From assembly GCA_038214255.1 (NCBI GenBank), contig JBBQRZ010000008.1, positions 23,832 to 87,831 of the forward strand: DNA of 64,000 nt. The letters run 5' to 3'. Positions 6,383 to 38,719 of this stretch are shown piece by piece. Positions within the stretch are counted from its first letter, which is position 1, and each line of letters opens with the position of its first letter. The notes under the pieces were generated by a model. That model was not told the DNA's origin. It was given only the letters and a program-made list of their open reading frames with translations, and made no database searches. The position numbers and the translations under genes were made by a program. The DNA comes from Candidatus Limnocylindrales bacterium (GTDB lineage Bacteria; Chloroflexota; Limnocylindria; Limnocylindrales; CSP1-4).

Positions 6383-6389
6383 CTGGCCC

Positions 6390-6477
6390 GGGCGAGTGGC
6401 GGAATGGCAGACGCGCCGGCCTTAGGAGCCGGTGCCGCGCAAGCGGCGTGTCGGTTCGACTCCGACCTCGCCTACCA
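6390..6477 (+). tRNA. tRNA-Leu (anticodon TAG), type II with long variable arm; CCA encoded
   Basis: Acceptor stem GGGCGAG/CTCGCCT. Anticodon stem-loop CCGGC-CTTAGGA-GCCGG, T arm GTCGG-TTCGACT-CCGAC, discriminator A then CCA. Confidence 0.75.
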
Positions 6478-6517
6478 CGCCGCCCGTTCACGGGACCCGC
6501 CCTATACTGCCCGGGCG

Positions 6518-8065: not shown

Positions 8066-8121
8066 GCCCGTCCGGCGACCACGACACCGACCTGCCACCG
8101 AACACCCCAGGGAGATCCCGC

Positions 8122-8823: not shown

Positions 8824-8845
8824 GAACGGGACGAGAGACGGGCAC

Positions 8846-10156
<1,311 letters not shown>

Positions 10157-14883: not shown

Positions 14884-14951
14884 GGGGTCTCCCGGGCTGC
14901 GCGCCGACCGGAGCGGGCGGCCCGCTCCGGTCGGCTTCTAGGGGTGCCGAA

Positions 14952-20836: not shown

Positions 20837-21748
20837 ATGGACGTGGCCATCGTGCTAGGACAGTTCCTCGACCGGCCGCGGGTTGCCTACGTTCGGTCGG
20901 TGCTCGACGTCTACGGTCGGGCGCCCGGCGGACTGCTGGCGAACGGTCTCGCGTTCGCTGCCCTTTTCTCGGCATTCCCGATCGCGTTCGTGACCCTCGG
21001 GGTAGCCGGCTTGCTCATCGGCAATCCGGCCGACCGGGCGGTCCTGGCCGAGTCGATCGCCGCCGTCGCCCCGCCGCTCCGCGAGGTCGTCGACGAGGCC
21101 GTGGCGGCCCTGGCCTCGGGCGCGGCGGTCACGTCGATCGTCGGCGTCGTCGGCCTCATCTGGACGGTCAGCCAGTTCTACGTGACGCTTGACGTGGCCT
21201 TCTCGCGGATCTTCACCGATCGACCGGAGCGTGACGTGTTCCGGCGCGTGGCCCGCGGGTTCGCGTGGGTGGCCGGGCTCGTGGGGATCGTCGTTGTGCT
21301 TATCGTCGCGGGGACGCTCGCCGCGGCCGCCAAGACATTCCTGCCGGAGTCGTACGGGACCCTCTGGAAGGTCGGCGACGTGCTCGCTTCGCCACTGGTG
21401 CTCGTCGGGGTCGGCGTCCTCGTCGTTCTGGTCGTCTACCGGGTCGTGCCGCCGCGGGCACCATCCTGGGGCGCGATCTGGCTGCCGGCCATCGTGGCCG
21501 GCCTGGCGATCGTCGCCCTCAGCCAGCTCTTCCTGTTCCTCGCTCCGCGCCTCATCGGCTCGGCTGCGCTCGCGGGATCGCTCGCAACCGCGTTCGTGGC
21601 CCTGGCCTGGCTGTCGTTCACGTTCCAGGCGCTGTTGTACGGCGCGGCCTGGGTCCGGGTACGCGACGAGGGAGCGCCTGGGACGGGCGGTTCAGCCCTG
21701 CCGGGTGCCGCAACGGCGGCAGAATCGGGCGGTCGCGGAGAGCGATAG
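20837..21748 (+). CDS. YihY/BrkB family inner membrane protein
   Basis: [15 protein letters not shown] and [15 protein letters not shown] motifs; multiple TM segments. Confidence 0.8.
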
Positions 21749-23230
21749 TCCGCAGCTGACACAGGCCTGGACGCCGCTCTTTGCGGCGGTTGCGACGGGA
21801 GCGGCCGTCACCTCGCGAGCCGATTCGGCCCAGAGCTGTTCGATCCCTCCGCTCGCCACGGCCGGCCGGCCAAAGGACGGGAGTCCACCGGCGCCGCGGT
21901 CGGCGGGCCACTCGGGCTGAGCCGGCCAGTTGGGGTTCGTCGATGCAGTGCTCGGTTCGACCGGTGCACGGAACGGTCCCGCTGGCGGGACCGCGATGGG
22001 CTGATCGCCGGCGCCGGGAGCGGGCACATCGGGTGCCACGATCCGCCAGGTCGGCTGTTCGACGACATCGCGACGGGCTTCCTCGGCCGCGACGACCGGC
22101 TCGGGCTCGGGCCCCGGTGCGGCGGCAACGACCGGCTCGGGCTCGGGCTCCGGTGCGGCGGCGATAACCGGCTCGGGTTCGGGCTCCAGCACGGCGGCGA
22201 TAACCGGCTCGGGTTCGGGTTCAGGTACGGCGGCGATAACCGGCTCGGGTTCGGGTTCCGGTACGGCGGCGACGACCGGCTCGGGCTCCAGCGCGGCGGC
22301 GACGGGCTCGGGAGCCGCGGCGATGACTGGATGGAGCTCGGGCTCCGGTCCGGCTGCGGCGATCGGCTCAACCTCGGGCTCGGCTGGGACCAGCTCGGCC
22401 TCGAACGCGGCGAGCTCGTCGTCGAGACTCTGGCCCGGGCGGAATCGCCGGAGGAGGTCCGTCGTCTGCTCCGCCGCCGCCGCGGCGCGTTCATCGGGAT
22501 CCTCGGCAGCATCGCTCGTCGGCGGGACCGGCGTGACCGGACGCGGGGCGATGGGCGCCGCACCGATGTCAGCCAGGCGTGCGGCGGCATCGATCGGCTC
22601 GAGACCCTCATCCTCGTCGAATCCGGTGCCAGCGATCTCGCCTGCCTCGAACTCGTCCGCTCGCGCCCGGAGCAGATCCCAGGCTGGCGCTTCCTCGGCC
22701 CGCAGAGCGCCTGGCTCGACCGTCGCGTCGAGCCCGGACGCGAGGTCGACCGTCGGTAGTTCGTCGCGAAGCAGATCGCTGGTTGGCCAGGCCATGGCGT
22801 CAGCCATCGGGGGCGGTTCGTGATGTCCGTTCGGCCCGCCGTTCCCCCCGTTGGTCTCGAGGCCCGCGGCCGGGTCGAGGTGGGGGAATGGGGCTTGCAG
22901 GATGTCGTGGCCCAGGTGCGGCGCGCACGACAGGCACTGGCCCTCGGCCTCGTTCCAGCAGTTGCCGCACGTGTACTGGCGGCAGGACATGCAGAAGTTG
23001 AAGGTCTTGTGGAACGCGTCGAGCTGGTGGGTCGTGACTTCTCGGTCGGACTCGCTGCGCGCGGCCGCCATCGCCTCGTCCAACGACGTGTCGTCGGACA
23101 TGACGAAGTTCTTGAGGCCGCGGGAGAGGACCTTGACGCCCCTGAGGCGCGGCCCGCGGGGCGCCCCGGACTCGAAGGTGTAGCGCGTGCCGCACCGTTC
23201 GCAGAAGGATTCGGTCAAGATCTCGGGCAT
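21692..23230 (-). CDS. Double zinc-ribbon protein with acidic Pro/Glu/Ala tandem-repeat linker ([11 protein letters not shown] repeats)
   Basis: N-terminal CERCG...[14 protein letters not shown]...CLSCAP and C-terminal CVSCG...CRRCG. Start set at MPEILTESF; the upstream part of ORF 21692..24022 overlaps fhaA and was rejected. Confidence 0.65.
22091..22270. repeat. Five tandem copies of a 36-bp coding repeat (gaynaccggctcgggytcgggytcnrgyrcggcggc), plus degenerate copies on both sides
   Basis: Direct inspection. Encodes the [11 protein letters not shown] 12-aa repeats of the zinc-ribbon protein on the minus strand. Confidence 0.7.
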
Positions 23231-23383
23231 CGGGTCCCCGGAGCAGGGTCGCTGGACAAGTTCAGGCCGGACGGACCACCCGAACGAGGCGAGAGTATAC
23301 CCCCACGTGCTGTGCGCCCCAGCACCGGGGGTACTGACGACACACGCGGATGGTCCCTCCCGGGGGCGCTCGGGACCCTCTGC

Positions 23384-23389
23384 TAGACT
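23384..23389 (+). promoter_or_regulatory. Extended -10-like element TGC-TAGACT 12 nt upstream of the fhaA ATG
   Basis: ctcTGCTAGACTccgccaccgaccATG; same motif as upstream of tRNA-Leu. Confidence 0.35.
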
Positions 23390-23401
23390 CCGCCACCGAC
23401 C

Positions 23402-24190
23402 ATGCCGCCGCTGGCCGCCATCGAGCGGTTCTTCGAACGCCTCTTCGAGCGTCCGTCCGCGCGTCTCTTCCGGGCACGTCTCCAGCCGGTCCAGCTGCAG
23501 CGTCGGATCGAGCGTGCGATGGAGGCGGATCGGCTCGCTACCGCCGACCGCACCCTTGTCCCGAACCGCTTCGTCGTCCATCTCAATCCCGACGACCTCG
23601 TCAAGTTCGGCGACATGACGGACAGCCTCGCATCGGAGCTCGCCGATGGCGCGCTTGTCTTCGCCCGGGCCCGCCGCTACACGCTCGTCGATCGACCTCG
23701 CGTCGATCTGCTGAGCGACCCGACCGTCGACCGAGCCGATATCCGGGTGACCGCGCGGTATGCCGATCCGATCCCCGGACGCGACGAGCGCGTGCCCCAC
23801 GAGCTCGATCTCGACGAAGCCGGCGACGACTCGCGCGGCCCGGTCCGCGCCGACACGATGGTCTACACGATCCCACGGCCCAGCGCGCCGCGCGCCCGGT
23901 TGCGGGTCACGAGCCAGGAGGGCGCGAGCCGAACCTGCGACTTCGACGGCGGTGGCTTCACGATCGGCCGAGCGGCCGACAACGATCTCGTGCTCCCTGA
24001 CGGTGGCGTCTCGCGCCACCACGCCCGGATCGTGGGTCGGCGAGGGACGCTGGTCTACACCGACTTGGGCAGCACCAACGGGTCGCGGGTGAATGGCGTG
24101 ACCGTCGGGGAGCTGGTGCTCGGCGCGGGCGACCGCATCGAGCTGGGCGATACCGTCATCGTCGTCGAGGTCGCCGGGGACGTGCCCTAG
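23402..24190 (+). CDS. fhaA: FHA domain protein FhaA (DUF3662 N-domain plus C-terminal FHA)
   Basis: [11 protein letters not shown] at the N-terminus; FHA core [23 protein letters not shown]...[14 protein letters not shown]. Confidence 0.8.
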
Positions 24191-24631
24191 ATGGACGGGT
24201 TCCTGGCCGTCATCTGGATCGTCCGGCTCCTGTTCCTCGCCCTCCTGTATCTATTTCTCGCCAGGGTCGTGCGCTCGCTGCTGCGCGACCTGCGGGCGGC
24301 GGCGCGAGAGCCATCGAGCTCGCTCGGCCGCCTGATCGTCCTCGACTCGCCGAGCGGCGAGCCGCCGCAGGGCCGCTCGTTCGATCTCGACGCGATCACG
24401 ACACTCGGGCGGGACGTCAACAACGCGATCGTCATCGAAGACCCGTTCGCCTCGGCCGAGCACGCCGTATTGACATACCGCGGCCAGAGCTGGTACGTGG
24501 AGGATCTCGGGAGCACGAACGGGACCTATGTCAACGGAGGCCCGGTCGCCGACCTGTCGCCACTCGGGTATGGCGATGAGGTCGCGATCGGCCAGGTCCG
24601 GTTGCGCCTCGAGCGAGCGCGGCCCGCATGA
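24191..24631 (+). CDS. fhaB: FHA domain membrane protein FhaB/FipA-like
   Basis: N-terminal TM helix then FHA ([22 protein letters not shown]...[14 protein letters not shown]). ATG abuts the fhaA stop. Confidence 0.75.
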
Positions 24632-24641
24632 GCTCGTCCGC

Positions 24642-26069
24642 GTGAGCGTGAGCCCCCGGGCGGCATCGGCGCCGACGCTGCCGCGGATCCTAGGGCCGAT
24701 CCACCCCCGGCCGCGGTGGACGGAGGCGCGCCTGCTCGGGATCGTCGCGGTGGCGCTCATCGTCGGAAGCCTGTCGCTCGGCATGACGCTCGCGCATCGG
24801 TTCGCCCCCTACGACGCGGGCGGGCTCGCGATCTACCTCGCCGCGCTGGGTGGCGCGCACGTCGCCCAGGTCCTGGCCGGACGCCGATCCGACCAGATCC
24901 TCCTGCCCGCCGTCGGCCTCCTCGGGGGGATATCGCTGCTGCTCATGCAGCGGCTGCCGCAGGATCTCGTGACGCTCAAGGTCGGTGGCTCGACGATCGG
25001 CCTCGGCGACATCCAGCTCGCTTGGCTGTGCCTCGCGATCGCCGTCGCCACGACCCTCGGGATCGTCGTCCGCTCGGACACCTGGCTGCGTCGCTACAAG
25101 TACACCTGGGCGGCGGTCGGCATCGCGCTGCTGCTGCTCACGTTCGTGCTCGGGGTGGACGTCGGCGGCCAGCGGTTGACTCTCCGGATCGGACCGGTCA
25201 GCGGCCAGCCCTCGGAGCTGCTAAAGGTCATCCTCGTCGTGTTCCTCGCCGGATACCTTTCCGAGAACCGGCCGCTGCTGATCGAGCAGGACACGCGCCT
25301 CGGGCCGCTACGCCTGCCGCCGCTGCCGTACCTCGCGCCGATGGTCGCGATGTGGGCGATCGCGCTCGGCATCGTCGTCGTCCAGCGCGATCTCGGCGCC
25401 GCCCTGCTGTTCTACGCGGTCTTCCTGGCTCTGCTGTACGCGGCGACCGGCCGGCTGAGCCTGGTCCTCATCGGTCTCGTCCTGTTCGTCCTGGGGAGCG
25501 CGCTCATGGCGTCGCTGTTCGACCACGTGCGCGCGCGGATCGACATCTGGATCGATCCCTTCGCCGACCCGCTCGGGACCGGCTACCAGATCGTCCAGTC
25601 GCTCCACGCCTTCGCCCGAGGCGGGCTCCTCGGGGTGGGGCTCGGTGCCGGGCTGCCGATGGTCGGGGGGCGGCTGCCGATCCCGGAGATCCATACCGAC
25701 TTCCCCCTCGCCGCGCTCGGCGAGGAGCTCGGGCTCGTGGGGGTCATCGCGATCCTGGGCGTGTACCTGGTCGTGGTCGAGCGCGGCCTGCGGATCGGCG
25801 CCTCGGCCGCCGACGACTTCCGCTCGATCCTCGCGACCGGCCTGGCCCTCGTCATCGGCGTCCAGGCGGTGATCATCGCGGCGGGCGACCTCAAGGTCCT
25901 GCCGCTCACCGGCGTCACCTTGCCGTTCATCAGCTACGGCGGCTCCTCGCTCCTCGCGAATGCGGTGGTGGTCGGCCTGCTCCTGGCGCTCTCGGACAAG
26001 GGCGTCGAGCCGCCCCCGCCGCCGACGGCCGGCGGCTGGCGGTCGCGCCTGCGGCGACGGCCGCGCTGA
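24642..26069 (+). CDS. rodA: FtsW/RodA/SpoVE family peptidoglycan glycosyltransferase
   Basis: Ten or more TM segments and the conserved GVGLGAG...PEIHTDF region. GTG start inferred 10 nt after the fhaB stop; the upstream part of ORF 24528 overlaps fhaB. Confidence 0.8.
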   Translation: MSVSPRAASAPTLPRILGPIHPRPRWTEARLLGIVAVALIVGSLSLGMTLAHRFAPYDAGGLAIYLAALGGAHVAQVLAGRRSDQILLPAVGLLGGISLLLMQRLPQDLVTLKVGGSTIGLGDIQLAWLCLAIAVATTLGIVVRSDTWLRRYKYTWAAVGIALLLLTFVLGVDVGGQRLTLRIGPVSGQPSELLKVILVVFLAGYLSENRPLLIEQDTRLGPLRLPPLPYLAPMVAMWAIALGIVVVQRDLGAALLFYAVFLALLYAATGRLSLVLIGLVLFVLGSALMASLFDHVRARIDIWIDPFADPLGTGYQIVQSLHAFARGGLLGVGLGAGLPMVGGRLPIPEIHTDFPLAALGEELGLVGVIAILGVYLVVVERGLRIGASAADDFRSILATGLALVIGVQAVIIAAGDLKVLPLTGVTLPFISYGGSSLLANAVVVGLLLALSDKGVEPPPPPTAGGWRSRLRRRPR

Positions 26070-27562
26070 TGCTCGCCACCTCGTCGCGGCGCCGCCCGCT
26101 CGGTCGGACGATCCTCCACGTCGCGATCGTCATCTCGATGGCCTTCGGCGTGCTGGCGGGCGCAGGCGGCTACTGGTCGGTCGTCGTGGCGCCGGATCTC
26201 GTCCGCTCCCCGTACGACCCGGCGGTGATCGCCGCCGCCCGGACGGTCCCGCGCGGCAAGATCCTCGATCGTGCCGGCCTGGTCCTTGCCCGCAACGCGA
26301 AGGACGCCAACGGCGAGTTCTACCGCGTCTACCGGGGACCGGCGATCAGCCAGGTCGTCGGGTACGCCTCGGGGACCTACGGCCGGGCCGGCCTCGAGCG
26401 GGGCTACGACGCCGAGCTCACCGGGCTCGCCGGCGACGCCCTCACAGGCGCGTTCCGCAAGTTCGGCGCCAGCCAGTACGACCCGAGCGATCTCGTCCTC
26501 TCACTCGACTACGGCCTCCAGCGGGATGCCGTCCGGGCGCTCGGCAACCGGCGCGGGGCCATCGTCATGCTCGACCCGACGACTGGTGAGGTTCGCGCGC
26601 TCGCCTCGACGCCGACCTATGACGCCTCGAAGATCACCGATCCGGCCACCGCGGCGACGGCGTTCGCCGCGCTCCAGGACGACAAGGACCAGCCGCTCCT
26701 GCCGCGCGCGACGCTGGGGCGGTACGTGCCGGGCTCCGTGTTCAAGATCGTGACCGCGATGGCCGGGCTTGGCTCGGGTGCGATCACGCCGTCGACGACC
26801 TACAAGGAACAGCCAGCTGCCGAGAAACGCGGGCTGATGGTGAAGGGATTCCGGGTGCACGACGGCCATCATCCGCAGACGGGCTCGACGCCGCTCGATC
26901 TTGTCAGCGCCACCGAGGTGTCGTGCAACATCTGGTACGCGCTGACCGGCCTGCGCACCGGCGGCGCCGACCTGGTCGCCTACGCCGGCCGGCTCGGTTT
27001 CGGTGCGCCGTTGCCGTTCGACCTCCCGACCGCGGCGTCGCAGGTGACCGGCGGAACCGGGAAGGCCCCGGGCGGGTTCGTCGACGACGTGGAGCTTGCC
27101 AACGCGTCCTACGGCCAGGGCGAGACGTTCGTGACTCCGCTCCAGATGGCACTGGTCGCGGCGACGGTGGCAAACGATGGGGCGCTCATGCGCCCACGCC
27201 TCGTGACCGCCCTGCGCAACAAGGGTGGGGAGCGCCAGATCGGCCCAGAACGTCTGCGCCAGGTCATCCCGGCCGACGAGGCGAAGGCCATCAACTCGGC
27301 GATGGTCGCCGCCGTCGAGGGTCCATTGGGCCGCCTGTTCACGACCGGGTCGAAGGTCCCAGGTGTGACGACCGCCGGCAAGTCCGGAACGGCCGAGCTC
27401 GGCGGCACAGGAGAACCGCACTCATGGTTCATCGGCTTCGCCCCGGCCGAGGCACCGCGGATCGCGATCGCCGTGCTCGTCGAGCAGGCCGGGCGCGGTG
27501 GCGAGGTGGCGGCGCCCATCGCCGGCCAGCTCATGGCCGGCTACCTGGCGGCGAACCCGTGA
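26069..27562 (+). CDS. pbpA: Penicillin-binding protein (class B transpeptidase, PbpA-like)
   Basis: N-terminal TM helix, SxxK (PGSVFK), and KSGTAE near the C-terminus. ATG overlaps the rodA stop (TGATG). Confidence 0.85.
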   Translation: MLATSSRRRPLGRTILHVAIVISMAFGVLAGAGGYWSVVVAPDLVRSPYDPAVIAAARTVPRGKILDRAGLVLARNAKDANGEFYRVYRGPAISQVVGYASGTYGRAGLERGYDAELTGLAGDALTGAFRKFGASQYDPSDLVLSLDYGLQRDAVRALGNRRGAIVMLDPTTGEVRALASTPTYDASKITDPATAATAFAALQDDKDQPLLPRATLGRYVPGSVFKIVTAMAGLGSGAITPSTTYKEQPAAEKRGLMVKGFRVHDGHHPQTGSTPLDLVSATEVSCNIWYALTGLRTGGADLVAYAGRLGFGAPLPFDLPTAASQVTGGTGKAPGGFVDDVELANASYGQGETFVTPLQMALVAATVANDGALMRPRLVTALRNKGGERQIGPERLRQVIPADEAKAINSAMVAAVEGPLGRLFTTGSKVPGVTTAGKSGTAELGGTGEPHSWFIGFAPAEAPRIAIAVLVEQAGRGGEVAAPIAGQLMAGYLAANP

Positions 27563-27840
27563 CCGACCCTGACGACCGCGGGCCCGAGGAGCGGCCGGGC
27601 CGGGCCACGCCGGTTCGAGACGTGCCGCCCCCTGACGCGCCGGCCCCCGATGTGGCGCGGACGCCGCGCCCCTGGATCGAGCGCATCGGCCTCGCCGCGA
27701 TCGCGACCGTGCTCGCGCTGATGTTCGGCGGCGTCGCGGCCTCGGCCTGGGTCGGCGGGGAGCCGTTCCTCGCGGTCATGGGTGGGATCGGCTGCCTGAT
27801 GACGGCCTGGGTCGGCGGACTGACGCTGTTCCGCGGCTGA
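27559..27840 (+). CDS. Small two-TM membrane protein
   Basis: GTG overlaps the pbpA stop (GTGA). Pro-rich N-terminus then two hydrophobic helices. Confidence 0.35.
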   Translation: MTDPDDRGPEERPGRATPVRDVPPPDAPAPDVARTPRPWIERIGLAAIATVLALMFGGVAASAWVGGEPFLAVMGGIGCLMTAWVGGLTLFRG

Positions 27841-28035
27841 AGGTTCGCGCGGAATGAGCGATTCGCCCCGGCGCAATGCCGTTCGGATCATGCCGCCGAA
27901 CGCCGCTTCGGAACCGATTTGACGGAACCGACGTACTATCCTGCGACACCACGGACCAGCACTGTGGTTCGTCGCACCCCCGAACGCCCGACCCCGGCGA
28001 TGCCGCACACGTCGCCGCAGCCGCGAGAGAGGCCG

Positions 28036-29052
28036 ATGTCGAAGATCCAGGAAACCGGGGACCGAGTCCTCGCCAACGTCGAGCGAGTCATCGTCGGCAA
28101 GCACCACGAGGTCCGCCTCGCGCTTGTCGCCCTCCTCTGCCGGGGCCACCTGCTCATCGAGGATGTGCCGGGGACCGGGAAGACCGTCCTGGCCAAGGCC
28201 ATCGCGCGAAGTCTCGGCTGTTCGTTCCGGCGCATCCAGTTCACGCCGGACCTCCTGCCCTCAGACGTTTCGGGCCTGTCGATCTACAACCAGAAGACCC
28301 AGGAGTTCGAGTTCCGGCCCGGACCGATCATGAGCCAGGTCGTGCTCGCCGACGAGATCAACCGGGCCACTCCCAAGACGCAGTCGGCGCTGCTCGAGTG
28401 CATGGAAGAGCGCCAGGCCACCATCGACGGAACGACCTATCCGATGCCCGACCCGTTCCTCGTCATCGCCACGCAGAACCCGATCGAGTACGAGGGCACG
28501 TTCGCCCTGCCGGAGGCCCAGCTCGACCGGTTCATGCTCCGGATCCGCCTCGGCTACCCTCAGCCGATCGAGGAGATCCTGATCCTCGACGAGCAGAAGC
28601 GCAGCCACCCGCTTGAGGAGATCGAGGAGGTCCTGAGCGTCGAAGAGCTACGCAGCCTCCAGGACGCCGTCCGTGAGATCTACGTCGATCCGACGGTCGC
28701 CGACTACATCGTCCGGGTCGTCAACGCCACGCGCAGCCATCCCGACGTCTACCTGGGCGCCTCGCCGCGCGGGTCGATCGCGCTCTACCGCGCCGGCCAG
28801 GCGCTGGCGGGGCTGCTCGGGCGCGACTATGTGATCCCCGACGACGTCAAGGCCCTCGCGGAGCCGGCCCTCGCCCACCGCCTGATCATCAAGACGAGCT
28901 CATCGATCCACGACGTCCAGGCCGGCCAGGTCGTGCGCGAGATCCTCGACGCCACTGCGATCGACGGCATCCGGCCGACCGGCGGCGGACCCACCGAGAT
29001 CCGACGGTCCGCCGCATCGAGTCGCGCGGGCACCAGCGCCGCCGGCGCCTAG
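28036..29052 (+). CDS. MoxR family AAA+ ATPase
   Basis: [33 protein letters not shown], plus an arginine-finger region. GAGAGAGG ribosome-binding site before the ATG. Confidence 0.85.
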
Positions 29053-29091
29053 TCCCTCGACGTCGAGCCAGCGAGCAACCGGGCGCGCGTC

Positions 29092-30348
29092 GTGATCCGC
29101 CGGCTGCAGTTCCTGGCCATCGCCACCGTCCTCATCGTGGCGTCGTTCTCGACCGGCCAGCCGTTCCTGTTCTATCTGCTCTATCTCGCGATCCTCGTCG
29201 TGGGTGGCTCGTACATTCTCGTCCGCCTCGGCCTGTCCGACCTGGAGGCCGGGTACGCGGTGAGCCAGCTCCACGGCCACGTCGGCGACCGGATGCGGGT
29301 CACGTACACGCTACGCAACGCCAGTCGCGTGCCCAAGCCGTGGCTCGAGGTCCACAACCCGACGACGCTGCCCGGCGGCCTGCCCGGGCGCGCCCTGCCG
29401 CTTGGCGGGCAGGCCGAGCGCTCGTGGCTGATCCGCGCCCCACTGACGCGTCGCGGCCATTTCCGGATCGAACCGCTCCACATCCGGACCGGCGATCCGT
29501 TCGGGTTCTACGAGGCTTCCGCGACCGTGGGTCAGGGGGTCAGCCTCGTCGTCTATCCGCGCCTGGAGCCACTGCCGGCCTGGCGCCTGCCGCCGGCAAG
29601 CCTCGAGGGCAGCCACGCCGCCCCCGAGCGGACCCTCCAGACGACGCCGCTCGCGACGACGGTCCGACCGTACGCGCCGGGCGACAGCATGAACCGCATC
29701 CACTGGCGCTCGACGGCGCGGCACGGTGACATCCAAGTCAAGGAGTTCGACCTGGAGCAGACCGCCGACGCATGGATCATCCTCGACCTCCAGCGCGCCA
29801 TCCAGGCCGGCCACGGCGACGATTCGACGACCGAGGTGGCCATCCGGGCGGCCGCCTCGATCGCCGACAGGGCGCTTACCGAAAACCGGGCGGTGGGGAT
29901 GACCGTCAACGCCGGCCGAACCGCGTTCCTGCCCGCCGATCGCGGCGGGCGCCAGCATCAGAAGATCATGCAGCTCCTCGCCGCCGTCGAGGCGGATCCG
30001 GGTAGCCCGCTCGTCGAGACGCTGATCGGCTCGGTCGGGCGCCTGCGGCGGGGGATGACCGCGGTTGTGATCACGGCCTCGAGCGATCCGGCCTGGGTCC
30101 GGCCGCTGGCGGCGCTCCGGACCCGGGGCGTGGCCTGCGTCGTCGTCGCGCTCGACGCCCCGGCCTTCGCCCAGGCCGAGCTCGAGGCACGCGCCGCCGC
30201 TACCGGCGAACCCGTCGTCCTCGATCCGGCGGCAACCGAGACCGCCGCCAAGCGTGCCCGCGCGTTGCGCCACGCCCTGGCCGAGTACGAGCTCAGATCG
30301 TTCACGGTCCGGCCGGGCCGCCCGCTCGGGGAGATGCTCGCTCGATGA
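29092..30348 (+). CDS. DUF58 domain protein (vWA-like partner of MoxR)
   Basis: Two N-terminal TM helices, a DUF58 core, GTG start. Confidence 0.8.
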   Translation: MIRRLQFLAIATVLIVASFSTGQPFLFYLLYLAILVVGGSYILVRLGLSDLEAGYAVSQLHGHVGDRMRVTYTLRNASRVPKPWLEVHNPTTLPGGLPGRALPLGGQAERSWLIRAPLTRRGHFRIEPLHIRTGDPFGFYEASATVGQGVSLVVYPRLEPLPAWRLPPASLEGSHAAPERTLQTTPLATTVRPYAPGDSMNRIHWRSTARHGDIQVKEFDLEQTADAWIILDLQRAIQAGHGDDSTTEVAIRAAASIADRALTENRAVGMTVNAGRTAFLPADRGGRQHQKIMQLLAAVEADPGSPLVETLIGSVGRLRRGMTAVVITASSDPAWVRPLAALRTRGVACVVVALDAPAFAQAELEARAAATGEPVVLDPAATETAAKRARALRHALAEYELRSFTVRPGRPLGEMLAR

Positions 30349-32633
30349 CCCGCGACCTGCCGCGGCGACCCTCGGAGGGCTGGCTGACCCTCGGCCTGGT
30401 CTTCCTGCTGAGCCTGACCCTGGCCTGGTCGCTCGACGACGCCAACCTGGTCGTCGGTCGTGGCGATTACACGGATTTCCTGGTCTGGACCGCGATCGGT
30501 GGGGCGTTCGCGGGGTTCGTCGGGTCGAAGGTCGGCTGGCGTCGCTGGACGACGTTCGCCGTTGGGGCGATGTTTGCCGCGCTCATCACGCCACTCATCG
30601 TGGGGTCGGTGCTGCTGCCCGACGGCGGCAACCTGTACCAGCTATTCGAAGCGACCGCGACCGCGTGCGTCGTCGCGTGGCGCGATCTGATCGTCTTCGA
30701 CCGGCTCTCGACGTCGGCATTCGGGCATCACCTGCTGGTGCTCGGCCTGATCGTGTGGGGCTCGTCGATGTTTGCCAGCTATGCCGCGTTCGGCCATCGG
30801 CGGCCGATCAACGGGGTGATCCTCATCGGCGTCCTGCTCGTCGGGAACATGGCACTGACGGTCCACGACCAGCTGGGCTACCTCGTCCTCTTCTCGCTCG
30901 CCGGGCTCTTCCTGCTGATCCGCTTCCACACGTTCGAGGAGTCGACCGAGTGGTTGCGTCGCCGAATCGGCGACCCGTCCGCGATCTCGGGGATGTACCT
31001 GCGCGGCGGGACGGTGTTCGTCGGGGCCGCGGTGCTTGGTTCGCTCGTCCTGACGTCGACCGCGAAATCGGCTCCCCTCAGCTCGATGTGGACCGACGTG
31101 GGCGGGAACATCGTCGAATGGTCCCGCGCGATCGAGAAGTTCCTCCCGGCCAGCGGCTCCGGCGTCTCCCTGGGGCCGGCGTTCGGTTCGACCGCGCCGA
31201 TCACCGGCTCGTGGACCACGAATGACGCGCCGGCGCTGTCGATCGACGTCCCGGCCGATCTCGACGTGATCCCGCACTGGGCGGCGGTGACGTACGACGT
31301 GTTCGACGTCCAGGGCTGGCGGCAGAGCCAGGCCACGTTCGTCGACCGCGCCCCGAACGTCGACCTGCTGGCCGACACCGGCGACGCCGTCGACGAGTCC
31401 GGCCGGCGCCCGCTGACCGTGAAGATCACCCCGGCGAACACCGCACCGACCCTCTCGACGATCTTTGCGCCGTCGACACCGCTGGCTGTCGACGCGCCGG
31501 TGACCGTCAAGCTCGTGGGCACCGAGGGGCACCTGGCCTCGATCGACCGGCGTCCATCGAAGAACCCCTATACGGTCTCCGCGCTGATCCCCCTGCGTGG
31601 CGATGGTGCTGGGGCGAGCCTGACCCAGAACCGCCTGCGGGCGGCGGGCACGGCCTACCCACCCGAGATCTCGGCGCTCTATCTCGGGCTGCCCCCGGAA
31701 GCCCTCGGTCCCGAGTCCGAAAAGATCCTCGCCGAGGTCAGGGCATTCGGGGCGCGCAACCCCTACGACATCGCGGCCTCGATCGTCCGCATCCTCCAGG
31801 ATCCCGCGAAGTTCACGTACTCCACCGACATCCGAGGCGTCGATTGCGCCGGCGTGTCGGTCGTCGAGTGCTTCGCCATCGCGAAGGGCGGCTACTGCGA
31901 GTACTACGCCTCCACGATGGCAGTGCTCCTGCGCGAGCTGGGCATCCCGGCACGCTTCGTCGAGGGGTATCTGCCGGGGTCGCGCGCCGAGGGCTCGAAC
32001 ACGGTCAACATCACCAACAATCAGGCCCATGCCTGGGTCGAGGTCTACTTCCCGCGCTACGGCTGGGTCACGTTCGACCCGACCGGCGGTGGGGTCGGCC
32101 AGAACCCGGCGCTGCCCTCGGGGGCACCGGTGTCGTCAGCCGGACCCGGGTCGTCGCCCAGTATCGACCCGCTCGGCAGCCGGGTCCCGCCACGCAACGA
32201 CGGGCGCGATCCGCTCGGGGGGACGTCGACGCCGATTCCGCGACCCGGCTCGTCCGGGCCGCTGATCGCGATCGCGCTGCTCCTCGCGGCCATCGTCGCC
32301 GGCCTGGCCTTCGTGGCCTGGCAGCGGGGACCGCGCGGCCCGGTGAGCGCCGACGACGTCTACGGCTCGATCACGCGGCTGGCCGGCCGCCTGGGCTTCG
32401 GTCCGCGGCCCAACCAGACGGTCTATGAGTACGCGGGAGCCCTCGCCGAGATCCTGCCGGTCGCCCGGCGCGAGCTCGAGACGGTCGCGCACGCCAAGGT
32501 CGAGGTCGCCTACGGCGGTCGGACGCTCGGCGCCGATCGGCTGCGCGGACTCCGCGAGGCGCAGCGGCGCCTGCGCCTGAGCCTGCTGCGCCTGGCTGTC
32601 CGGCGCGCCCGTCGCGGCCGAAACCGACGCTGA
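30345..32633 (+). CDS. Transglutaminase-like multi-pass membrane protein (TgpA-like, DUF3488 plus TGase core)
   Basis: Cys-His-Asp core (GGYCEYYAS...AHAWVEVYFP...VTFDPTGG), N-terminal multi-TM region, C-terminal TM. ATGA overlap with the DUF58 gene. Confidence 0.8.
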   Translation: MTRDLPRRPSEGWLTLGLVFLLSLTLAWSLDDANLVVGRGDYTDFLVWTAIGGAFAGFVGSKVGWRRWTTFAVGAMFAALITPLIVGSVLLPDGGNLYQLFEATATACVVAWRDLIVFDRLSTSAFGHHLLVLGLIVWGSSMFASYAAFGHRRPINGVILIGVLLVGNMALTVHDQLGYLVLFSLAGLFLLIRFHTFEESTEWLRRRIGDPSAISGMYLRGGTVFVGAAVLGSLVLTSTAKSAPLSSMWTDVGGNIVEWSRAIEKFLPASGSGVSLGPAFGSTAPITGSWTTNDAPALSIDVPADLDVIPHWAAVTYDVFDVQGWRQSQATFVDRAPNVDLLADTGDAVDESGRRPLTVKITPANTAPTLSTIFAPSTPLAVDAPVTVKLVGTEGHLASIDRRPSKNPYTVSALIPLRGDGAGASLTQNRLRAAGTAYPPEISALYLGLPPEALGPESEKILAEVRAFGARNPYDIAASIVRILQDPAKFTYSTDIRGVDCAGVSVVECFAIAKGGYCEYYASTMAVLLRELGIPARFVEGYLPGSRAEGSNTVNITNNQAHAWVEVYFPRYGWVTFDPTGGGVGQNPALPSGAPVSSAGPGSSPSIDPLGSRVPPRNDGRDPLGGTSTPIPRPGSSGPLIAIALLLAAIVAGLAFVAWQRGPRGPVSADDVYGSITRLAGRLGFGPRPNQTVYEYAGALAEILPVARRELETVAHAKVEVAYGGRTLGADRLRGLREAQRRLRLSLLRLAVRRARRGRNRR

Positions 32634-32666
32634 CCGCCGGCCACCGGCCGGCCCGGCTCCGCGCCC

Positions 32667-33395
32667 CTAGAGAGCGCCGCTGCGGCTGCGCGCCTCCTGG
32701 ACCTCCACGGCCTCCTCGTCGAGCAGGCCGGACAGGTGGCTCGTAAGGTTGTGCGCCCGGAGCACGGCTCGCCCGGCCCGGATGTCCACGACGGTGATCG
32801 CGCACAGGTCCATCGACCACATCCAGAACCGCTCGAGAGGCAAGTCGAACAGGGTCAGCAGCGCGATCTTGAACACGCCGTCGTGGCCGACGACGATCGA
32901 CCACGGCTGGTTCGCGGTGGCCGTCCCGTAGCCCGCGACCTGGTCCCGGTCGATCGACCCGGGCGTCCCGCCCTCGGCCAGGCGTTCGAGGGCGGAGGCC
33001 AGCCCGGGTCGCACCCGGTCCGCGACCGCCGCCAGCGATTCGCCGCCCGGTGCCCACGCGTCGGTCGGCGTGCGCCGCCACGCTGCCAGCTCCGCCGCAT
33101 AGCGGGTGCCGATCTCGTCGCGGTGCAGCCCTTCCCACTCGCCCTGTCCGATCTCGAGGAAGGCCGGATCGGCCCGCTGCGCGAGGCCGGTGGCGGCCGC
33201 GATCGCCTCGGCCGTCTCACGGGTCCGCACGAGCGGCGAATGGACGATCTCGCGCGCCGGTCCGGCGGGGAGTGGGAGCGCCGGTGGATCGTGCGGTCGG
33301 GCGAGGCGGTCGGCCACGAGGCGAGCCTGGCGGCGGCCGGTCGGCGAGAGCGGGGTCTCGGCCTGGCCCTGGAACCGACCCTCGACGATATACAC
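32667..33395 (-). CDS. Histidine phosphatase family protein (PGM-like); candidate phosphoserine phosphatase
   Basis: RHGQ-type motif context (VEGRFQGQAETPLSPTGRRQA) and a C-terminal His (IVVGHDGV). Confidence 0.8.
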   Translation of the reverse strand: MYIVEGRFQGQAETPLSPTGRRQARLVADRLARPHDPPALPLPAGPAREIVHSPLVRTRETAEAIAAATGLAQRADPAFLEIGQGEWEGLHRDEIGTRYAAELAAWRRTPTDAWAPGGESLAAVADRVRPGLASALERLAEGGTPGSIDRDQVAGYGTATANQPWSIVVGHDGVFKIALLTLFDLPLERFWMWSMDLCAITVVDIRAGRAVLRAHNLTSHLSGLLDEEAVEVQEARSRSGAL

Positions 33396-36406: not shown

Positions 36407-37336
36407 ATGACCCGCTCGCCGGCCCGCCGCGGCCGCCTACGACGCCTCGCCGCGATCGCCGTCGTGCTGTCGCTCGTCGCCGCCACCCTCACGACGCTGG
36501 CCATCGCGACGGATGCGTTCGGGGCGGGCGAACGCTGGGACGCGCTCCTGGCGAAGGTCGACCGCTTCCTCGCCGGCCCGGTCCCGCAGCGACACACCCT
36601 CTCGACCGTGCGCGTCACCCCGCCGCCCTCGATCGAGCCGGCGACCGCGCCGGCCACGCCGGATCCGTCGGGCCACGTCCCGACCGCGGCGCCGACGGTG
36701 AAGCCGAAACGCGTCGCGGTCGATATCAACATCGCCACCTCGCCCGACCAGGTCTTCAAGACCGAGCTCCACAAGGATTGGTGTGCCGTGGCCGGCGTCC
36801 AGATCGTGCTGGCCCAGCTGGGGCTTGCCGATACCTCCGACGCCACCCAGAACAAGCTCGCCGGGCGGATCCGCGAGTGGGACTCGTACGACGACAGCCA
36901 CAACGGGGACTGGGGCCCGGCTGCGATGGCCCTGGCCCTCCAGACCTATGGCGCCCCGGGCTACGAGATCCGGGCCTTCGAGGGTCGGAACGAAGCCCTG
37001 GTCGACGCGGCCCGGGCGATCGAGACGACCGGCTCGCCGGCGATCCTCCTGGCCTGGCGGGGTGCCCACACCTGGGTGATGTCCGGGTTCAAGGCCGATG
37101 CCGACCCCGTCCTCTTCGACCGCAACGTGCACATCTCCGGCACCTACATCCTCGACCCGTGGTATCCCCGGATCTCCTCGATCTGGGGCCCCTCCGACCC
37201 GCCGGGGACCTTCCAGGACAAGCCCGAGATGGAGCGCAACTTCCTGCCCTGGAAGCGGCCCGAAGGGAACTATCCGGACCGCGATGGGCTCTACATCACG
37301 GTGGTCCCGACGCTGCCGGCTCCGAAGGGGGGTTAG
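36407..37336 (+). CDS. Secreted protein with Tat-like signal and C39-like peptidase fold candidate
   Basis: RRGRLRRLAAIAVV signal sequence, a Pro/Thr/Ala linker, and conserved Cys (DWCAVAGVQ) and His residues. Confidence 0.6.
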   Translation: MTRSPARRGRLRRLAAIAVVLSLVAATLTTLAIATDAFGAGERWDALLAKVDRFLAGPVPQRHTLSTVRVTPPPSIEPATAPATPDPSGHVPTAAPTVKPKRVAVDINIATSPDQVFKTELHKDWCAVAGVQIVLAQLGLADTSDATQNKLAGRIREWDSYDDSHNGDWGPAAMALALQTYGAPGYEIRAFEGRNEALVDAARAIETTGSPAILLAWRGAHTWVMSGFKADADPVLFDRNVHISGTYILDPWYPRISSIWGPSDPPGTFQDKPEMERNFLPWKRPEGNYPDRDGLYITVVPTLPAPKGG

Positions 37337-38681
37337 GGGGCATCGCCCGTATCCGCCGGGCGAGGACGACGACGAGCAGCGCGAACCGGAGTGCGACCCC
37401 GGACGAGAACCCGATCGGGATGGCCGCCGCCCCCAGCGGGCCGGCGAGCACGAGCGTGACAAGGATCGTGACGCCGAATCCGACGAGCGTGGCAATCACC
37501 TGCCAGGCCGTGTGGTGGGTCGCGTAGATCGCCCGGCTGAACAGGTGCCCCAGGCTCTCGAACGGGATCGAGATCGCGAAGAGGGCGAGGACCAGGGAGG
37601 TGCGTGCCACGGCGTCGGCATCGAACCGGCCACCCAGGAAGAACAGGTCGATCGCGAATGGGCCGACGATCGCCAGGCCGAGCGCCGCGGCCGTGGTCAG
37701 GAGGCCGATCGTCAGGGCGTTGACCCGAACGAGGCGCACGAAGGCGGCTCGCTCGCCGGCCGCGTAGGCCGCAGCCAGCGATGGGAACGCGGCCACGGAG
37801 AAGGCGATGCCGATCAGGCTGACGGGCACGCTCTGGAAGTTGCGGGCGAGGTTGATCGTCGTGATGCTCCCGGTCGCGAGCGCCGAACCGACGCGGGTGA
37901 AGAATAGGAAGGTCAGCGGCTCGACCGGGCCGCTGCCGATCTTGGGGATCGCCAGCGCCACGAACTCGCGAACCGCCCCGGTGCCGACCCGAAATCGCGG
38001 CCGGATCCGAAATGGCGTCCGGAGCGACCCGATGACGCGGATCCCGAGGTGCAGGCTCGCCCCCAGGACCGCCCCCACCGCCGGCGCGTAGATCCCGATC
38101 TTTCCCGCGAGCAGTAGGGTGCCGACGACGATGCCGGTGTTGAACATCAGCGGCGCCGCGCCGTAGAAGAAGAAGCGACGCTCGGCGACGAGCACCTCGC
38201 CGATCGCAGTCGACGCCGCGAACAGCACCTGGGTGACGCACAGGATCCGGAACAGGGACACGTACAGGTCGCGACGCTCTGCATCGAATCCGGGGGCGAC
38301 GATCTGGACCGTCAGGGGCGCGGCGACGAACAGGACGACCGCGACGGCGCCCATCGCCAGGACCGCCAGGGTCAGGATCGTCTGGGCGAACTCGAAGGCC
38401 GCGCGCTCGCTCTCGCGTCGGAGGCCGCTGAAGATCGGGATGAACGGCGCCGCGAGCCCGCTCGCGACGATGACGCTGAAGGCGAGGTCGGGCAGGACGA
38501 ACGCCGTGTTGAACGTGTCGAGCTCGAGGCCGGCGCCGAACGTCCGCGTCAGGGCTCGGTCCCGAACCAGGCCCATGATGTAGCCGGAAAACGTCAGGGC
38601 CGACAGCAGGATCGCGCCGCGCGGCACGACGCGATCGATCAGCGGACGGATCGCGCCCAGGCGCGCGCTCGTTGTCGCCAT
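37296..38681 (-). CDS. murJ: Lipid II flippase MurJ
   Basis: MviN/MurJ N-terminal motif (SALTFSGYIMGLVRDRALTRTFGAG...DTFNTAFVLPD), about 14 TM segments. Start at MATTSARLG. Confidence 0.85.
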   Translation of the reverse strand: MATTSARLGAIRPLIDRVVPRGAILLSALTFSGYIMGLVRDRALTRTFGAGLELDTFNTAFVLPDLAFSVIVASGLAAPFIPIFSGLRRESERAAFEFAQTILTLAVLAMGAVAVVLFVAAPLTVQIVAPGFDAERRDLYVSLFRILCVTQVLFAASTAIGEVLVAERRFFFYGAAPLMFNTGIVVGTLLLAGKIGIYAPAVGAVLGASLHLGIRVIGSLRTPFRIRPRFRVGTGAVREFVALAIPKIGSGPVEPLTFLFFTRVGSALATGSITTINLARNFQSVPVSLIGIAFSVAAFPSLAAAYAAGERAAFVRLVRVNALTIGLLTTAAALGLAIVGPFAIDLFFLGGRFDADAVARTSLVLALFAISIPFESLGHLFSRAIYATHHTAWQVIATLVGFGVTILVTLVLAGPLGAAAIPIGFSSGVALRFALLVVVLARRIRAMPPNPPSEPAASGPP

Positions 38682-38719
38682 GTCCTCAGGATGACGGCCG
38701 GAACGGCCCCGGTGCACCG

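Follow-up and report, generated by a model that had tools for sequence, protein, structure and literature searches.

A cell-wall synthase operon with two FHA-domain proteins and an adjoining, probably separate MoxR-DUF58-transglutaminase operon in Candidatus Limnocylindria

The stretch of DNA analyzed here (64 kb, hereafter the window) carries eight plus-strand genes in the order fhaA, fhaB, rodA, pbpA, a small two-TM gene, moxR, a DUF58 gene and a TgpA-like transglutaminase gene. The region is likely to comprise two adjoining but separate transcription units on a Ca. Limnocylindria (Chloroflexota) chromosome, with moxR having its own promoter and the kinases being encoded elsewhere. The first unit, fhaA-fhaB-rodA-pbpA-(small two-TM gene), encodes a SEDS polymerase paired with a class B PBP transpeptidase, together with two FHA-domain adaptors that would recognize threonines phosphorylated by Ser/Thr kinases from other parts of the genome. 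The second unit, moxR-DUF58-tgpA, would be transcribed from a conserved promoter resembling those of ECF (envelope-stress) sigma factors. It encodes a chaperone-like AAA+ ATPase, the DUF58 protein that partners it and a polytopic membrane transglutaminase whose Cys-His-Asp domain is extracytoplasmic. The side-by-side placement of the two units across the class is a peculiarity of the lineage, and it is frequently interrupted. Neither module is unusual: the first is an operon for cell-wall synthases that includes two FHA regulators, the second a MoxR-DUF58-transglutaminase operon of a widespread kind.

Gene content and host lineage

The gene content and order given in the initial annotation were confirmed by Pfam, with all genes on the plus strand (Table 1). 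Its frame of reference, the Actinomycetota, had to be replaced, as all of the 80 loci nearest in a PbpA search belonged to Chloroflexota, Ca. Limnocylindria (70-78% identity). Three boundaries were also revised. Position 23231, taken as the start of the cluster, is the edge of the divergent minus-strand gene, and fhaA begins at 23402. The start of rodA is uncertain: GTG 24642 is more likely than ATG 24628, which is out of frame with rodA, and in an identical Logan contig the gene is called from the position that corresponds to 24642. For moxR, TTG 27919 was rejected in favour of ATG 28036, where the Shine-Dalgarno sequence GAGAGAGG is conserved and ATG is present in all relatives. This start leaves 195 nt of non-coding DNA between the small TM gene and moxR.

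Table 1. Features of the region (positions in the window)
Feature	Position	Strand	Description
Zn-ribbon/Pro-rich gene, divergent	21692-23230	-	
Divergent intergenic region, Zn-ribbon/Pro-rich gene vs fhaA	23231-23401		Two conserved motifs
fhaA	23402-24190	+	Pfam FhaA_N (DUF3662) E=2.9e-24, FHA E=1.5e-17
fhaB-like gene	24191-24631	+	Pfam FHA 8.2e-19
rodA/ftsW-type SEDS peptidoglycan polymerase	24642-26069	+	Pfam FTSW_RODA_SPOVE 4.5e-70; ~10 TM (TM scan)
pbpA, class B penicillin-binding protein	26069-27562	+	Pfam PBP_dimer_2 + Transpeptidase, 6.7e-59
Small two-TM gene, 93 aa	27559-27840	+	Pro/Arg-rich N-terminus, two TM helices
Promoter-like element GGAACC-N16-CGTACTAT	27910-27939	+	ECF (group IV) sigma promoter-like; 97 nt upstream of moxR
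Predicted moxR leader, ~90-97 nt	27940-28035	+	Ends in conserved Shine-Dalgarno GAGAGAGG (alignment)
moxR	28036-29052	+	Pfam AAA_3 3.6e-64, AAA_lid_2 3.4e-23
DUF58 protein	29092-30348	+	Pfam DUF58 2.1e-18; N-terminal TM helices (TM scan)
tgpA-like membrane transglutaminase	30345-32633	+	Pfam Transglut_core + DUF4129

When 72 upstream regions were aligned, columns conserved to at least 80% marked out two motifs in the divergent intergenic region: CGAGAGTATACC (23290-23301) and CTGCTAGACTCC (23380-23391). The latter contains a -10-like TAGACT with its 3' end 12 nt before the fhaA ATG, and the pair may represent promoter elements. FhaA consists of the FhaA_N (DUF3662) domain, a variable linker and a C-terminal FHA domain, and its best solved relatives are the FHA domain structures of M. 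tuberculosis FhaA (TB39.8), 3PO8 and 2LC1 (E~3e-11). The fhaB-like gene abuts fhaA (TAGATG) and was coupled to it in every context examined; its product has a single N-terminal TM helix (residues 5-23, hydropathy scan) followed by the FHA domain. A gap of 10 nt, without a PP2C gene, separates fhaB from rodA. PbpA has an N-terminal TM anchor, the PBP_dimer_2 domain and a transpeptidase domain with the motifs S223VFK, S285CN and K438SG, and its relatives in the PDB include M. tuberculosis PBPA 3LO7 and 3UN7 (E~1e-42). The start/stop overlaps in the initial annotation could be read from the sequence as claimed: TGATG at rodA/pbpA (26067-26071), GTGA at pbpA/small-TM (27559-27562) and ATGA at DUF58/TGase (30345-30348).

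The small two-TM gene is the final gene of the first operon. Its 93 aa product had no matches in Pfam, its GC content by codon position is 0.77/0.62/0.91 (GC3 0.91), and tblastn recovered it from 79 of the 80 close relatives (53-87% identity). Two Limnocylindria loci at greater distance, L082 and L089, lack it.

MoxR is a MoxR-proper (MRP) AAA+ ATPase with a P-loop (VPGTGKT) and a Walker motif read from the translation, and is 85-98% identical among close relatives. The DUF58 gene follows after 39 nt; DUF58 proteins are the usual partners of MRP-type MoxR. The TgpA-like protein was predicted by TM scan to have ~6 N-terminal TM helices, an extracytoplasmic Transglut_core, a further TM helix (640-658) and a cytoplasmic DUF4129 domain. 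Its core contains C518 (GYCEYY), H562 (HAWVE) and D578 (FDPT). The sole PDB relative is the periplasmic domain of P. aeruginosa TgpA (6G49, E=3.6e-15), and the ortholog in L089 also matches TgpA_N.

The junction between the small TM gene and moxR

The initial annotation described the synthase and MoxR modules as fused. This does not agree with the pattern of insertions among relatives, in which the small-TM/moxR junction was the only one repeatedly broken, and with the promoter-like motif that moxR has of its own. When a junction was counted as broken at more than 1 kb between adjacent genes, 17 of 73 relatives had inserts here, 1.1-8.7 kb in size, and 16 of these 17 interrupted loci had opposite-strand genes within the insert. 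The inserts comprised GDE (glycogen debranching enzyme; 7 loci), GH63-like genes (7), DsbD/thioredoxin (1) and a cyclase with GlcDH or PhoX (2), functions unrelated to the cell-envelope cluster. No inserts above 1 kb were found at fhaA/fhaB, fhaB/rodA, rodA/pbpA or pbpA/small-TM (75-79 loci per junction), nor at moxR/DUF58 or DUF58/TGase (61-69 loci).

Upstream of moxR, GGAACC-N16-CGTACTAT occurs exactly in 62 loci, one copy per locus. The relaxed form GAAC[CT]-N16-CGTA[CG]TAT is shared by 71 distinct sequences, in every one of which it precedes the moxR ATG by 95-113 nt, and in the window the pattern GGAAC-N17-CGTAC has a single match (chance expectation 0.04). In none of the 17 interrupted loci was the motif separated from moxR. 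Judged from this conservation, the element is a good candidate for moxR's own promoter. The predicted leader had no match in Rfam, and the leaders gave no consensus structure and a stability no greater than that of shuffled sequences.

As to the type of promoter, ECF -10 elements commonly have a CGT core, and the B. subtilis sigma-W promoter reads TGAAAC-N16-CGTA. The -35 half has the GGAAC of the GGAAC(TT) consensus that the group IV sigma factor sigma-E of E. coli uses, and GGAAC with its AA core is a hallmark of this and other group IV factors (PMC1540707). The motif might instead combine a housekeeping-type promoter (-10 TACTAT) with a conserved transcription factor operator, a reading that we regard as possible but rather unlikely. 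Both TACTAT and TACCAT conform to a TAnnnT -10, L082 and L089 keep the -10 half CGTAC[CT]AT whereas L089, the most distant locus, has lost the -35 half, and the ~50 window proteins yielded neither an ECF sigma nor an anti-sigma factor. However, besides the ECF-like features of both halves, GGAACC shares just 2 of 6 positions with TTGACA and yet is invariant in the 62 loci. An ECF-type promoter is the preferred interpretation.

The two units are adjacent across the class, including L089, but the junction is interrupted in the relatives described above; a conserved motif that may act as a promoter precedes moxR, but a pattern scan detected no intrinsic terminator between the units and the fold z-score there is -0.18, so that some read-through from pbpA into moxR is possible in this genome. 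In close relatives the neighbourhood is collinear throughout, from an amylase gene to SerA and an aminotransferase, which makes bare linkage uninformative. Adjacency is also kept in L089, where PbpA identity is only 40% and the downstream flank differs, and here it goes beyond trivial short-range synteny.

That the eight genes make up a single unit for envelope remodelling, co-transcribed or coupled in function, with MoxR/DUF58 and the transglutaminase acting on or with the RodA-PbpA synthase, appears improbable. It would fit the shared strand, the adjacency conserved over Limnocylindria including the divergent L082 and L089, the undetected terminator and the cell-wall role proposed by the authors of the TgpA study (PMC3507681). 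Anecdotal parallels, in which the triad or TgpA alone is near cell-wall or Ser/Thr-signalling genes, are a Nonomuraea triad divergent from mraZ-rsmH-...-ftsI, the Bifidobacterium PFNA cluster pkb2-fn3-moxR-duf58-tgm-prpC-hyp-fha (PMC8430577) and the order PBP2-peptidase-VanW-TgpA-like on a Rubrobacter plasmid. It is opposed by the unrelated opposite-strand genes that split the junction in 16 of 73 close relatives while the other internal junctions are intact, by the invariant promoter-like motif and ~97 nt leader that belong to moxR, by the unrelated contexts of the triad in Listeria, Ralstonia and Arthrobacter, and by another Chloroflexi MAG in which rodA-pbpA is followed by a convergent MFS gene and not by moxR.

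FHA proteins, phosphatase and kinases

The absence of pstP, pknA and pknB reported in the initial annotation holds across the 64 kb. HRDxKPxN and PP2C motifs were found in none of the six frames, tblastn with Actinomyces oris PstP, PknA and PknB and Tsukamurella PknA and PknB gave zero matches at E<=0.01 in the window while positive controls matched, and no PP2C or Hanks kinase Pfam families were present among the ~50 window proteins. Nothing was found with the actinobacterial PstP, PknA and PknB queries in ~1.5 Mb of syntenic Chloroflexota loci either, all of which cover one small genomic region.

The cluster is nevertheless not "reduced", as it had been called. Nine more distant Chloroflexota-type FhaA contexts, including two divergent Limnocylindria-type loci, Kouleothrix and several Chloroflexi MAGs, always had fhaA paired with fhaB and never had a PP2C or kinase gene in the operon (0/9), which marks the cluster as the normal form of the phylum. 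The lack of phosphatase and kinases in cis is thus the normal Chloroflexota layout and not a loss. In only three of the nine was rodA-pbpA present (the Limnocylindria-type loci and one other MAG), and moxR followed the fhaA cluster in the Limnocylindria-type loci only.

Both FHA domains have intact phosphothreonine-binding residues (GR189-190, S204-R-H-H207 and T225-N-G in FhaA; GR, SAEH and TNG in the FhaB-like protein), and Thr152 in the otherwise variable FhaA linker is at least 90% conserved across 323 homologues. These features fit the earlier suggestion that the FHA proteins depend on kinases elsewhere, and Ser/Thr kinases from other loci probably serve them. Very unlikely, in our view, is a lineage that has lost Ser/Thr kinase and phosphatase signalling and whose FHA proteins act without phosphorylation. 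The small genomes of Limnocylindria (mean 2.39 Mb, PMC10608941) and the absence of kinase and phosphatase genes from the window and the syntenic loci would be compatible with it, but those loci are silent on the remaining genome. All canonical binding residues are retained, the linker Thr is conserved as expected of a phospho-acceptor, and in one Chloroflexota-type relative the gene for a giant Pkinase protein lies 6 kb away from the fhaAB pair.

Comparison with known systems

The first operon resembles the actinobacterial fhaA-pknB cluster (M. tuberculosis Rv0020c-Rv0014c) in the order and orientation of FhaA, FhaB, RodA and PbpA, in tight or overlapping junctions and in conserved FHA binding residues. 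The Actinomyces oris and Tsukamurella controls showed the canonical FhaA-FHA-PP2C-RodA-PBP-STK-PknB order, whereas in the window, from a Chloroflexota host, no PP2C gene lies in the short fhaB-rodA gap and pbpA is followed by the lineage-specific small two-TM gene and not by kinases. The fhaA-fhaB pair is the sole constant part in other Chloroflexota.

The putative moxR promoter shares with ECF (group IV) promoters a GGAAC -35 with an AA core, a 16-17 nt spacer and a -10 beginning CGT(A), but its -10 runs into TACTAT, which would also suit a housekeeping sigma factor.

The MoxR-DUF58-TgpA triad stands on its own in Listeria, Ralstonia, Pseudomonas and actinomycetes, and the module is known from many phyla. 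The Listeria and Ralstonia triads agree with that of the window in gene order and in the 4-nt DUF58/TgpA overlap, Arthrobacter has the triad with cell-wall neighbours absent, and P. aeruginosa PA2875-PA2874-tgpA is co-transcribed (PMC3507681). The core of the Bifidobacterium PFNA cluster is aaa-atp-duf58-tgm, to which kinase, FN3 protein, PP2C and FHA genes are added that are absent from the triad here (PMC8430577). As in other MoxR(MRP)-DUF58-TgpA operons, the transglutaminase of the window combines an N-terminal polytopic domain, an extracytoplasmic Cys-His-Asp core and a C-terminal TM helix. It differs in its C-terminal DUF4129 and in an N-terminal domain below the Pfam TgpA_N threshold, and the triad itself differs in lying directly downstream of a SEDS/bPBP operon, with a putative ECF-like promoter.

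Gene content and host lineage

ORF lists of the window are noisy because of its G+C content of 71%; genes were called from third-position GC and Pfam matches. The gene content and order described in the initial annotation were confirmed, and the junctions TAGATG, TGATG, GTGA and ATGA read as described there. Three details were corrected: position 23231, taken as the edge of the cluster, is merely the border of a divergent gene on the minus strand, rodA probably begins with the GTG at 24642, and moxR starts at the ATG at 28036, which is preceded by a conserved Shine-Dalgarno sequence (GAGAGAGG) and leaves a spacer of 195 nt to the small two-TM gene.

Features of the cluster and its flanks (positions in the window)
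Feature	Position	Strand	Description
ABC sugar-transporter operon	13001-16307	-	GC 0.64 vs 0.71; unusually low first-position GC
Alpha-amylase and LacI/ABC sugar cluster	13001-19292		
Gene for 512-aa protein, divergent from fhaA	21692-23230	-	Cys-rich zinc-ribbon-like motifs at N- and C-terminus, the latter with a weak Pfam match (Zn_Ribbon_1/DZR)
36-bp tandem repeat within the preceding gene	22084-22288		5.7 copies; encodes PEPEPEPV(I/V)AA(V/A)
Motif CGAGAGTATACC	23290-23301		upstream of fhaA
Motif CTGCTAGACTCC	23380-23391		upstream of fhaA; includes -10-like TAGACT
fhaA	23402-24190	+	FhaA_N (DUF3662) + FHA (Pfam)
FhaA Thr152	~23855-23857		...RADTMVY...; candidate phospho-acceptor site
fhaB-like	24191-24631	+	small protein, TM + FHA (Pfam, TM scan)
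SEDS rodA/ftsW	~24642-26069	+	FTSW_RODA_SPOVE (Pfam)
pbpA, class B PBP	26069-27562	+	PBP_dimer_2 + transpeptidase; SVFK, SCN and KSG motifs
Small two-TM ORF, 93 aa	27559-27840	+	no Pfam match
Motif GGAACC-N16-CGTACTAT	27910-27939		putative ECF-like promoter of moxR
moxR leader	27940-28035		
moxR	28036-29052	+	AAA_3 (3.6e-64) + AAA_lid_2 (Pfam)
DUF58	29092-30348	+	DUF58 (2.1e-18, Pfam)
TgpA-like transglutaminase	30345-32633	+	Transglut_core (2.7e-21) + DUF4129 (Pfam)
MurJ lipid II flippase	37296-38795	-	4.7 kb downstream of tgpA

In the PDB, PbpA matched M. tuberculosis PBPA and the top matches of FhaA were M. tuberculosis FhaA. The translated MoxR sequence contains an intact P-loop (VPGTGKT) and Walker B motif (VVLADEINR). 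In the transglutaminase, about six N-terminal TM helices precede an extracytoplasmic core containing C518, H562 and D578, after which come a further TM helix and the cytoplasmic DUF4129 domain. Among solved structures the protein has a single relative, the periplasmic domain of TgpA from P. aeruginosa (6G49, E=3.6e-15). Pfam returned no TgpA_N (TgpA_N/DUF3488) match for the window protein at E<=0.01; the domain is on record for its ortholog in L089, a divergent locus labelled Ca. Limnocylindria.

To place the host, a set with one genome per species was searched with PbpA, which gave 343 relatives, and the best 80 of these (70-78% identity) were examined. All 80 had the Limnocylindria (Chloroflexota) gene order, and the labels of nearly all records were Chloroflexota, Chloroflexia or Ca. 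Limnocylindria/Limnocylindrales; a few were odd. Genomes of Ca. Limnocylindria average 2.39 Mb with 68.9% GC (PMC10608941), and the GC content of the window is compatible with this class. Because both the nearest PbpA relatives and the GC content point to Limnocylindria, the actinobacterial frame in which the cluster had been described does not apply; the host is not a member of the Actinomycetota, and an fhaA-rodA-pbpA block in high-GC DNA need not be of actinobacterial origin. Seven metagenome-assembled genome (MAG) records labelled 'Candidatus Saccharimonadales', 'Patescibacteria group' or 'uncultured Anaerolineaceae' (L009, L032, L042, L054, L056, L079 and L081) showed exactly the Limnocylindria synteny, with PbpA 71-77% identical, and are probably mislabelled or contaminated bins.

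The small two-TM gene was present in 79 of these 80 closest relatives. In L082 and L089, two Limnocylindria loci that are more divergent, it is absent, and a non-coding stretch of 105-135 nt separates pbpA from moxR. The operon acquired this gene recently, as a lineage-specific addition. A homologue of the divergently encoded 512-aa protein occupied the same position in about one third of the Limnocylindria relatives (38-55% identity; tblastn, best 80 of 343). The sugar-transporter operon further upstream, with its deviating base composition, may have been acquired horizontally.

The junction between the small two-TM gene and moxR

The initial annotation had treated the MoxR-DUF58-TgpA triad as fused to the fhaA-pbpA block. 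Among the best 80 of the 343 relatives the whole neighbourhood was collinear, from the upstream amylase gene as far as the downstream genes for SerA and an aminotransferase, so that linkage as such is barely informative. As a test for unity we determined which junctions carry more than 1 kb of inserted DNA in these loci. No such insertion was found at fhaA/fhaB, fhaB/rodA, rodA/pbpA or pbpA/small-TM (0 of 75-79 loci at each), nor at moxR/DUF58 or DUF58/transglutaminase (0 of 61-69 loci at each), while the junction between the small two-TM gene and moxR was interrupted by 1.1-8.7 kb in 17 of 73 loci. The inserted genes were unrelated in function and lay on the opposite strand in 16 of the 17 loci; they encoded a glycogen debranching enzyme (7 loci), a GH63/MGH1-like hydrolase (7 loci), a DsbD-thioredoxin protein (1 locus) or a cyclase with glucose dehydrogenase or PhoX (2 loci). 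The possibility that the inserts house the 'missing' kinases was rejected on the basis of this content.

Thirteen relatives carried glycogen-debranching and/or GH63-like genes at this junction (L010, L019, L025, L027, L033, L041-L043, L054, L061, L070, L072 and L081). A few kb upstream of the cluster, the window itself contains the alpha-amylase and LacI/ABC sugar cluster. Glycan-metabolism genes thus seem to have a hot spot of gain and loss in this region.

Within the 200 nt upstream of moxR, the motif GGAACC-N16-CGTACTAT was invariant. It matched once in the window, against 0.04 matches expected by chance, and in 62 loci its exact form had a single copy each; 71 distinct sequences contained a slightly relaxed form, in every case at a distance of 95-113 nt from the moxR ATG. 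In every locus with an insertion between the small two-TM gene and moxR, the motif remained next to moxR. A GGAAC -35 element is characteristic of E. coli sigma-E and, by extension, of other group IV (ECF) sigma factors (PMC1540707). The moxR motif combines a conserved GGAAC -35 element with a spacer of ~16-17 nt and a -10 element whose core is CGT. CGT is a common core of ECF -10 elements. Judged by these features, the motif is a putative, ECF-like promoter. No sigma gene was found among the ~50 window proteins scanned, and a sigma-70 consensus scan of 23000-33000, which does not cover alternative sigma factors, returned no promoter. If it does act as a promoter, this strongly conserved element could offer a regulatory handle on the triad, and it is the one concrete new lead from this region.

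The moxR leader has a near-constant length of ~95-113 nt. By eye, two putative hairpins can be drawn in it, one at the 5' side closed by GAC...GTC and another formed by GGCG...CGCC, and some changes look compensatory. RNAalifold gave essentially no consensus structure, the 71 leaders were no more stable than shuffled sequences (mean z +0.8), and Rfam returned no known RNA in 23000-33000.

The elements conserved upstream of fhaA differ from those upstream of moxR. Both CGAGAGTATACC and CTGCTAGACTCC were at least 80% conserved in 72 fhaA upstream regions, and the TAGACT of the latter ends 12 nt before the fhaA ATG, which suggests a very short leader.

With one junction broken in 17 of 73 loci, the other internal junctions free of insertions above 1 kb and a promoter-like motif that stays with moxR, the term 'fused' cannot be kept. 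Two findings tell against a clean separation: the adjacency is retained even in L089, despite a PbpA identity of 40% and a changed downstream flank, and a pattern scan detected no terminator between the units, where the 77-nt fold was unremarkable (z=-0.18). We conclude that these are probably two transcription units, which lie side by side across the class, with read-through possible. The triad would itself form one co-transcribed unit, given its 39-nt moxR-DUF58 gap, its 4-nt DUF58/TgpA overlap and the lack of insertions above 1 kb at its junctions in 61-69 loci.

FHA proteins without neighbouring kinases

The reported absence of pstP, pknA and pknB was confirmed for the 64 kb. A six-frame motif scan found no Hanks-kinase or PP2C motifs, tblastn with PstP, PknA and PknB queries from Actinomyces oris and Tsukamurella gave no match while the positive controls matched, and Pfam detected no Pkinase or PP2C family among the ~50 window proteins. 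Hanks-kinase homologues were likewise absent from the 80 related loci (best 80 of the 343 PbpA relatives).

The cluster had been called 'reduced' for this reason. More distant Chloroflexota contexts were collected from FhaA representatives at 34-60% identity and by profile search, and their contigs were inspected. The order FhaA-FhaB-RodA-PbpA-MoxR-DUF58-TGase was found in L082, a Limnocylindria-type metagenome contig (FhaA 44% identity), and the same order, ending in TgpA, in L089 (FhaA 37% identity). A Chloroflexi MAG had FhaA-FhaB-PNP-RodA-PbpA followed by a convergent MFS gene, Kouleothrix had FhaA-FhaB-nuo, and in other MAGs and contigs FhaA-FhaB was followed by VanW, an MTAP-like phosphorylase, a CoA ligase or a hypothetical gene. 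In none of the distant FhaA contexts examined did the operon contain a PP2C or kinase gene, and the constant unit in Chloroflexota is therefore the fhaA-fhaB pair. Not having pstP and pknAB in cis is normal for Chloroflexota and no reduction: the phylum has a widespread fhaA-fhaB pair that, in the contexts examined, is never in one operon with the phosphatase and kinases defining the actinobacterial cluster.

Among the loci examined, the only kinase near any fhaAB pair outside the Actinomycetota was a giant protein of 2107 aa that combines Pkinase, AAA_16, GAF and PAS domains and is encoded 6 kb downstream of the pair in a Chloroflexota-type MAG (L098 16826-20729; L099 9382-13285).

Both FHA domains retain the phosphothreonine-binding residues Gly-Arg, Ser-x-x-His and Thr-Asn-Gly. 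Thr152 of FhaA, which sits in an otherwise variable linker, was at least 90% conserved when 323 FhaA homologues, spanning near and distant Chloroflexota, were aligned, and is a candidate phospho-acceptor site. In M. tuberculosis FhaA, a linker threonine is phosphorylated by PknB. The conservation of the binding residues and of Thr152 favours FHA proteins that would rely on kinases encoded elsewhere in the genome.

Comparison with known operons

Both operons of the region belong to known kinds and represent new members of these, from a Chloroflexota class that is uncultured. The genes, their order and the absence of pstP, pknA and pknB stand as first observed. The interpretation has partial support; 'reduced', 'fused' and the actinobacterial frame do not stand, and the main use of the analysis is as a correction, with little as discovery.

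A link between the triad and cell-wall synthesis has mixed support elsewhere. In Nonomuraea the triad is divergent from an adjoining mraZ-rsmH-...-ftsI cluster, and Bifidobacterium also shows a link; a Rubrobacter marinus plasmid (L093, NZ_CP045122.1, locus 1055-9155) carries co-directional genes for a sortase, PBP2 (mrdA), a trypsin-like peptidase, a VanW/PG-binding protein and a lone TgpA-like protein, without MoxR or DUF58. No cell-wall link was seen in Listeria, Ralstonia, an Arthrobacter replicon or a Kineococcus plasmid. The Limnocylindria adjacency, the bifidobacterial PFNA cluster, Nonomuraea and Rubrobacter are anecdotes that hint at a TgpA-cell-wall link in Terrabacteria, and counter-examples are as numerous. 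We consider it improbable that the triad is an ECF-sigma envelope-stress module whose transglutaminase modifies peptidoglycan or the SEDS/bPBP proteins, and that its adjacency to rodA-pbpA reflects an FHA/kinase-controlled link of TgpA to the cell wall in Terrabacteria.

The Nonomuraea gerenzanensis locus (L092, NZ_LT559118.1 4379003-4399428) also has a Ser/Thr kinase gene ~6 kb downstream; this record is an 11.85 Mb chromosome filed as 'plasmid I' in a plasmid collection. In the window, the MurJ gene is separated from tgpA by genes for a histidine phosphatase, SerA, an aminotransferase and hypothetical proteins, and lies outside both operons.

The second unit corresponds to the MoxR(MRP)-DUF58-TgpA operon. 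It shares with it the AAA_3-type MoxR with DUF58 directly downstream, and a TgpA architecture of polytopic N-terminal part, Cys-His-Asp core and C-terminal TM helix. In P. aeruginosa, PA2875-PA2874-tgpA is co-transcribed, as determined by RT-PCR, and tgpA is essential (PMC3507681). The PFNA cluster of bifidobacteria contains the aaa-atp-duf58-tgm core alongside a Ser/Thr kinase gene and, in some species, PP2C and FHA genes too (PMC8430577). Listeria monocytogenes and a Ralstonia megaplasmid have the triad in identical order, with the same 4-nt DUF58/TgpA overlap, among unrelated neighbours, and the Arthrobacter replicon has it without cell-wall neighbours. Given these varied contexts, the triad is an autonomous, widespread module.

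The first unit resembles the actinobacterial fhaA-pknB cluster, which in annotated Actinomyces oris and Tsukamurella records has its canonical order of FhaA, FHA, PP2C, FtsW/RodA, PBP2, STK and PknB. Both have FhaA (FhaA_N + FHA) followed by a small TM-FHA protein (FhaB/FipA), and the SEDS protein RodA followed by a PbpA-type class B PBP. They differ in that the window, whose host lies outside the Actinomycetota, has no PstP (PP2C) gene between fhaB and rodA, where stop and start are 10 nt apart, and no PknA or PASTA kinase PknB directly 3' of pbpA, where the small two-TM gene and then moxR are found instead.
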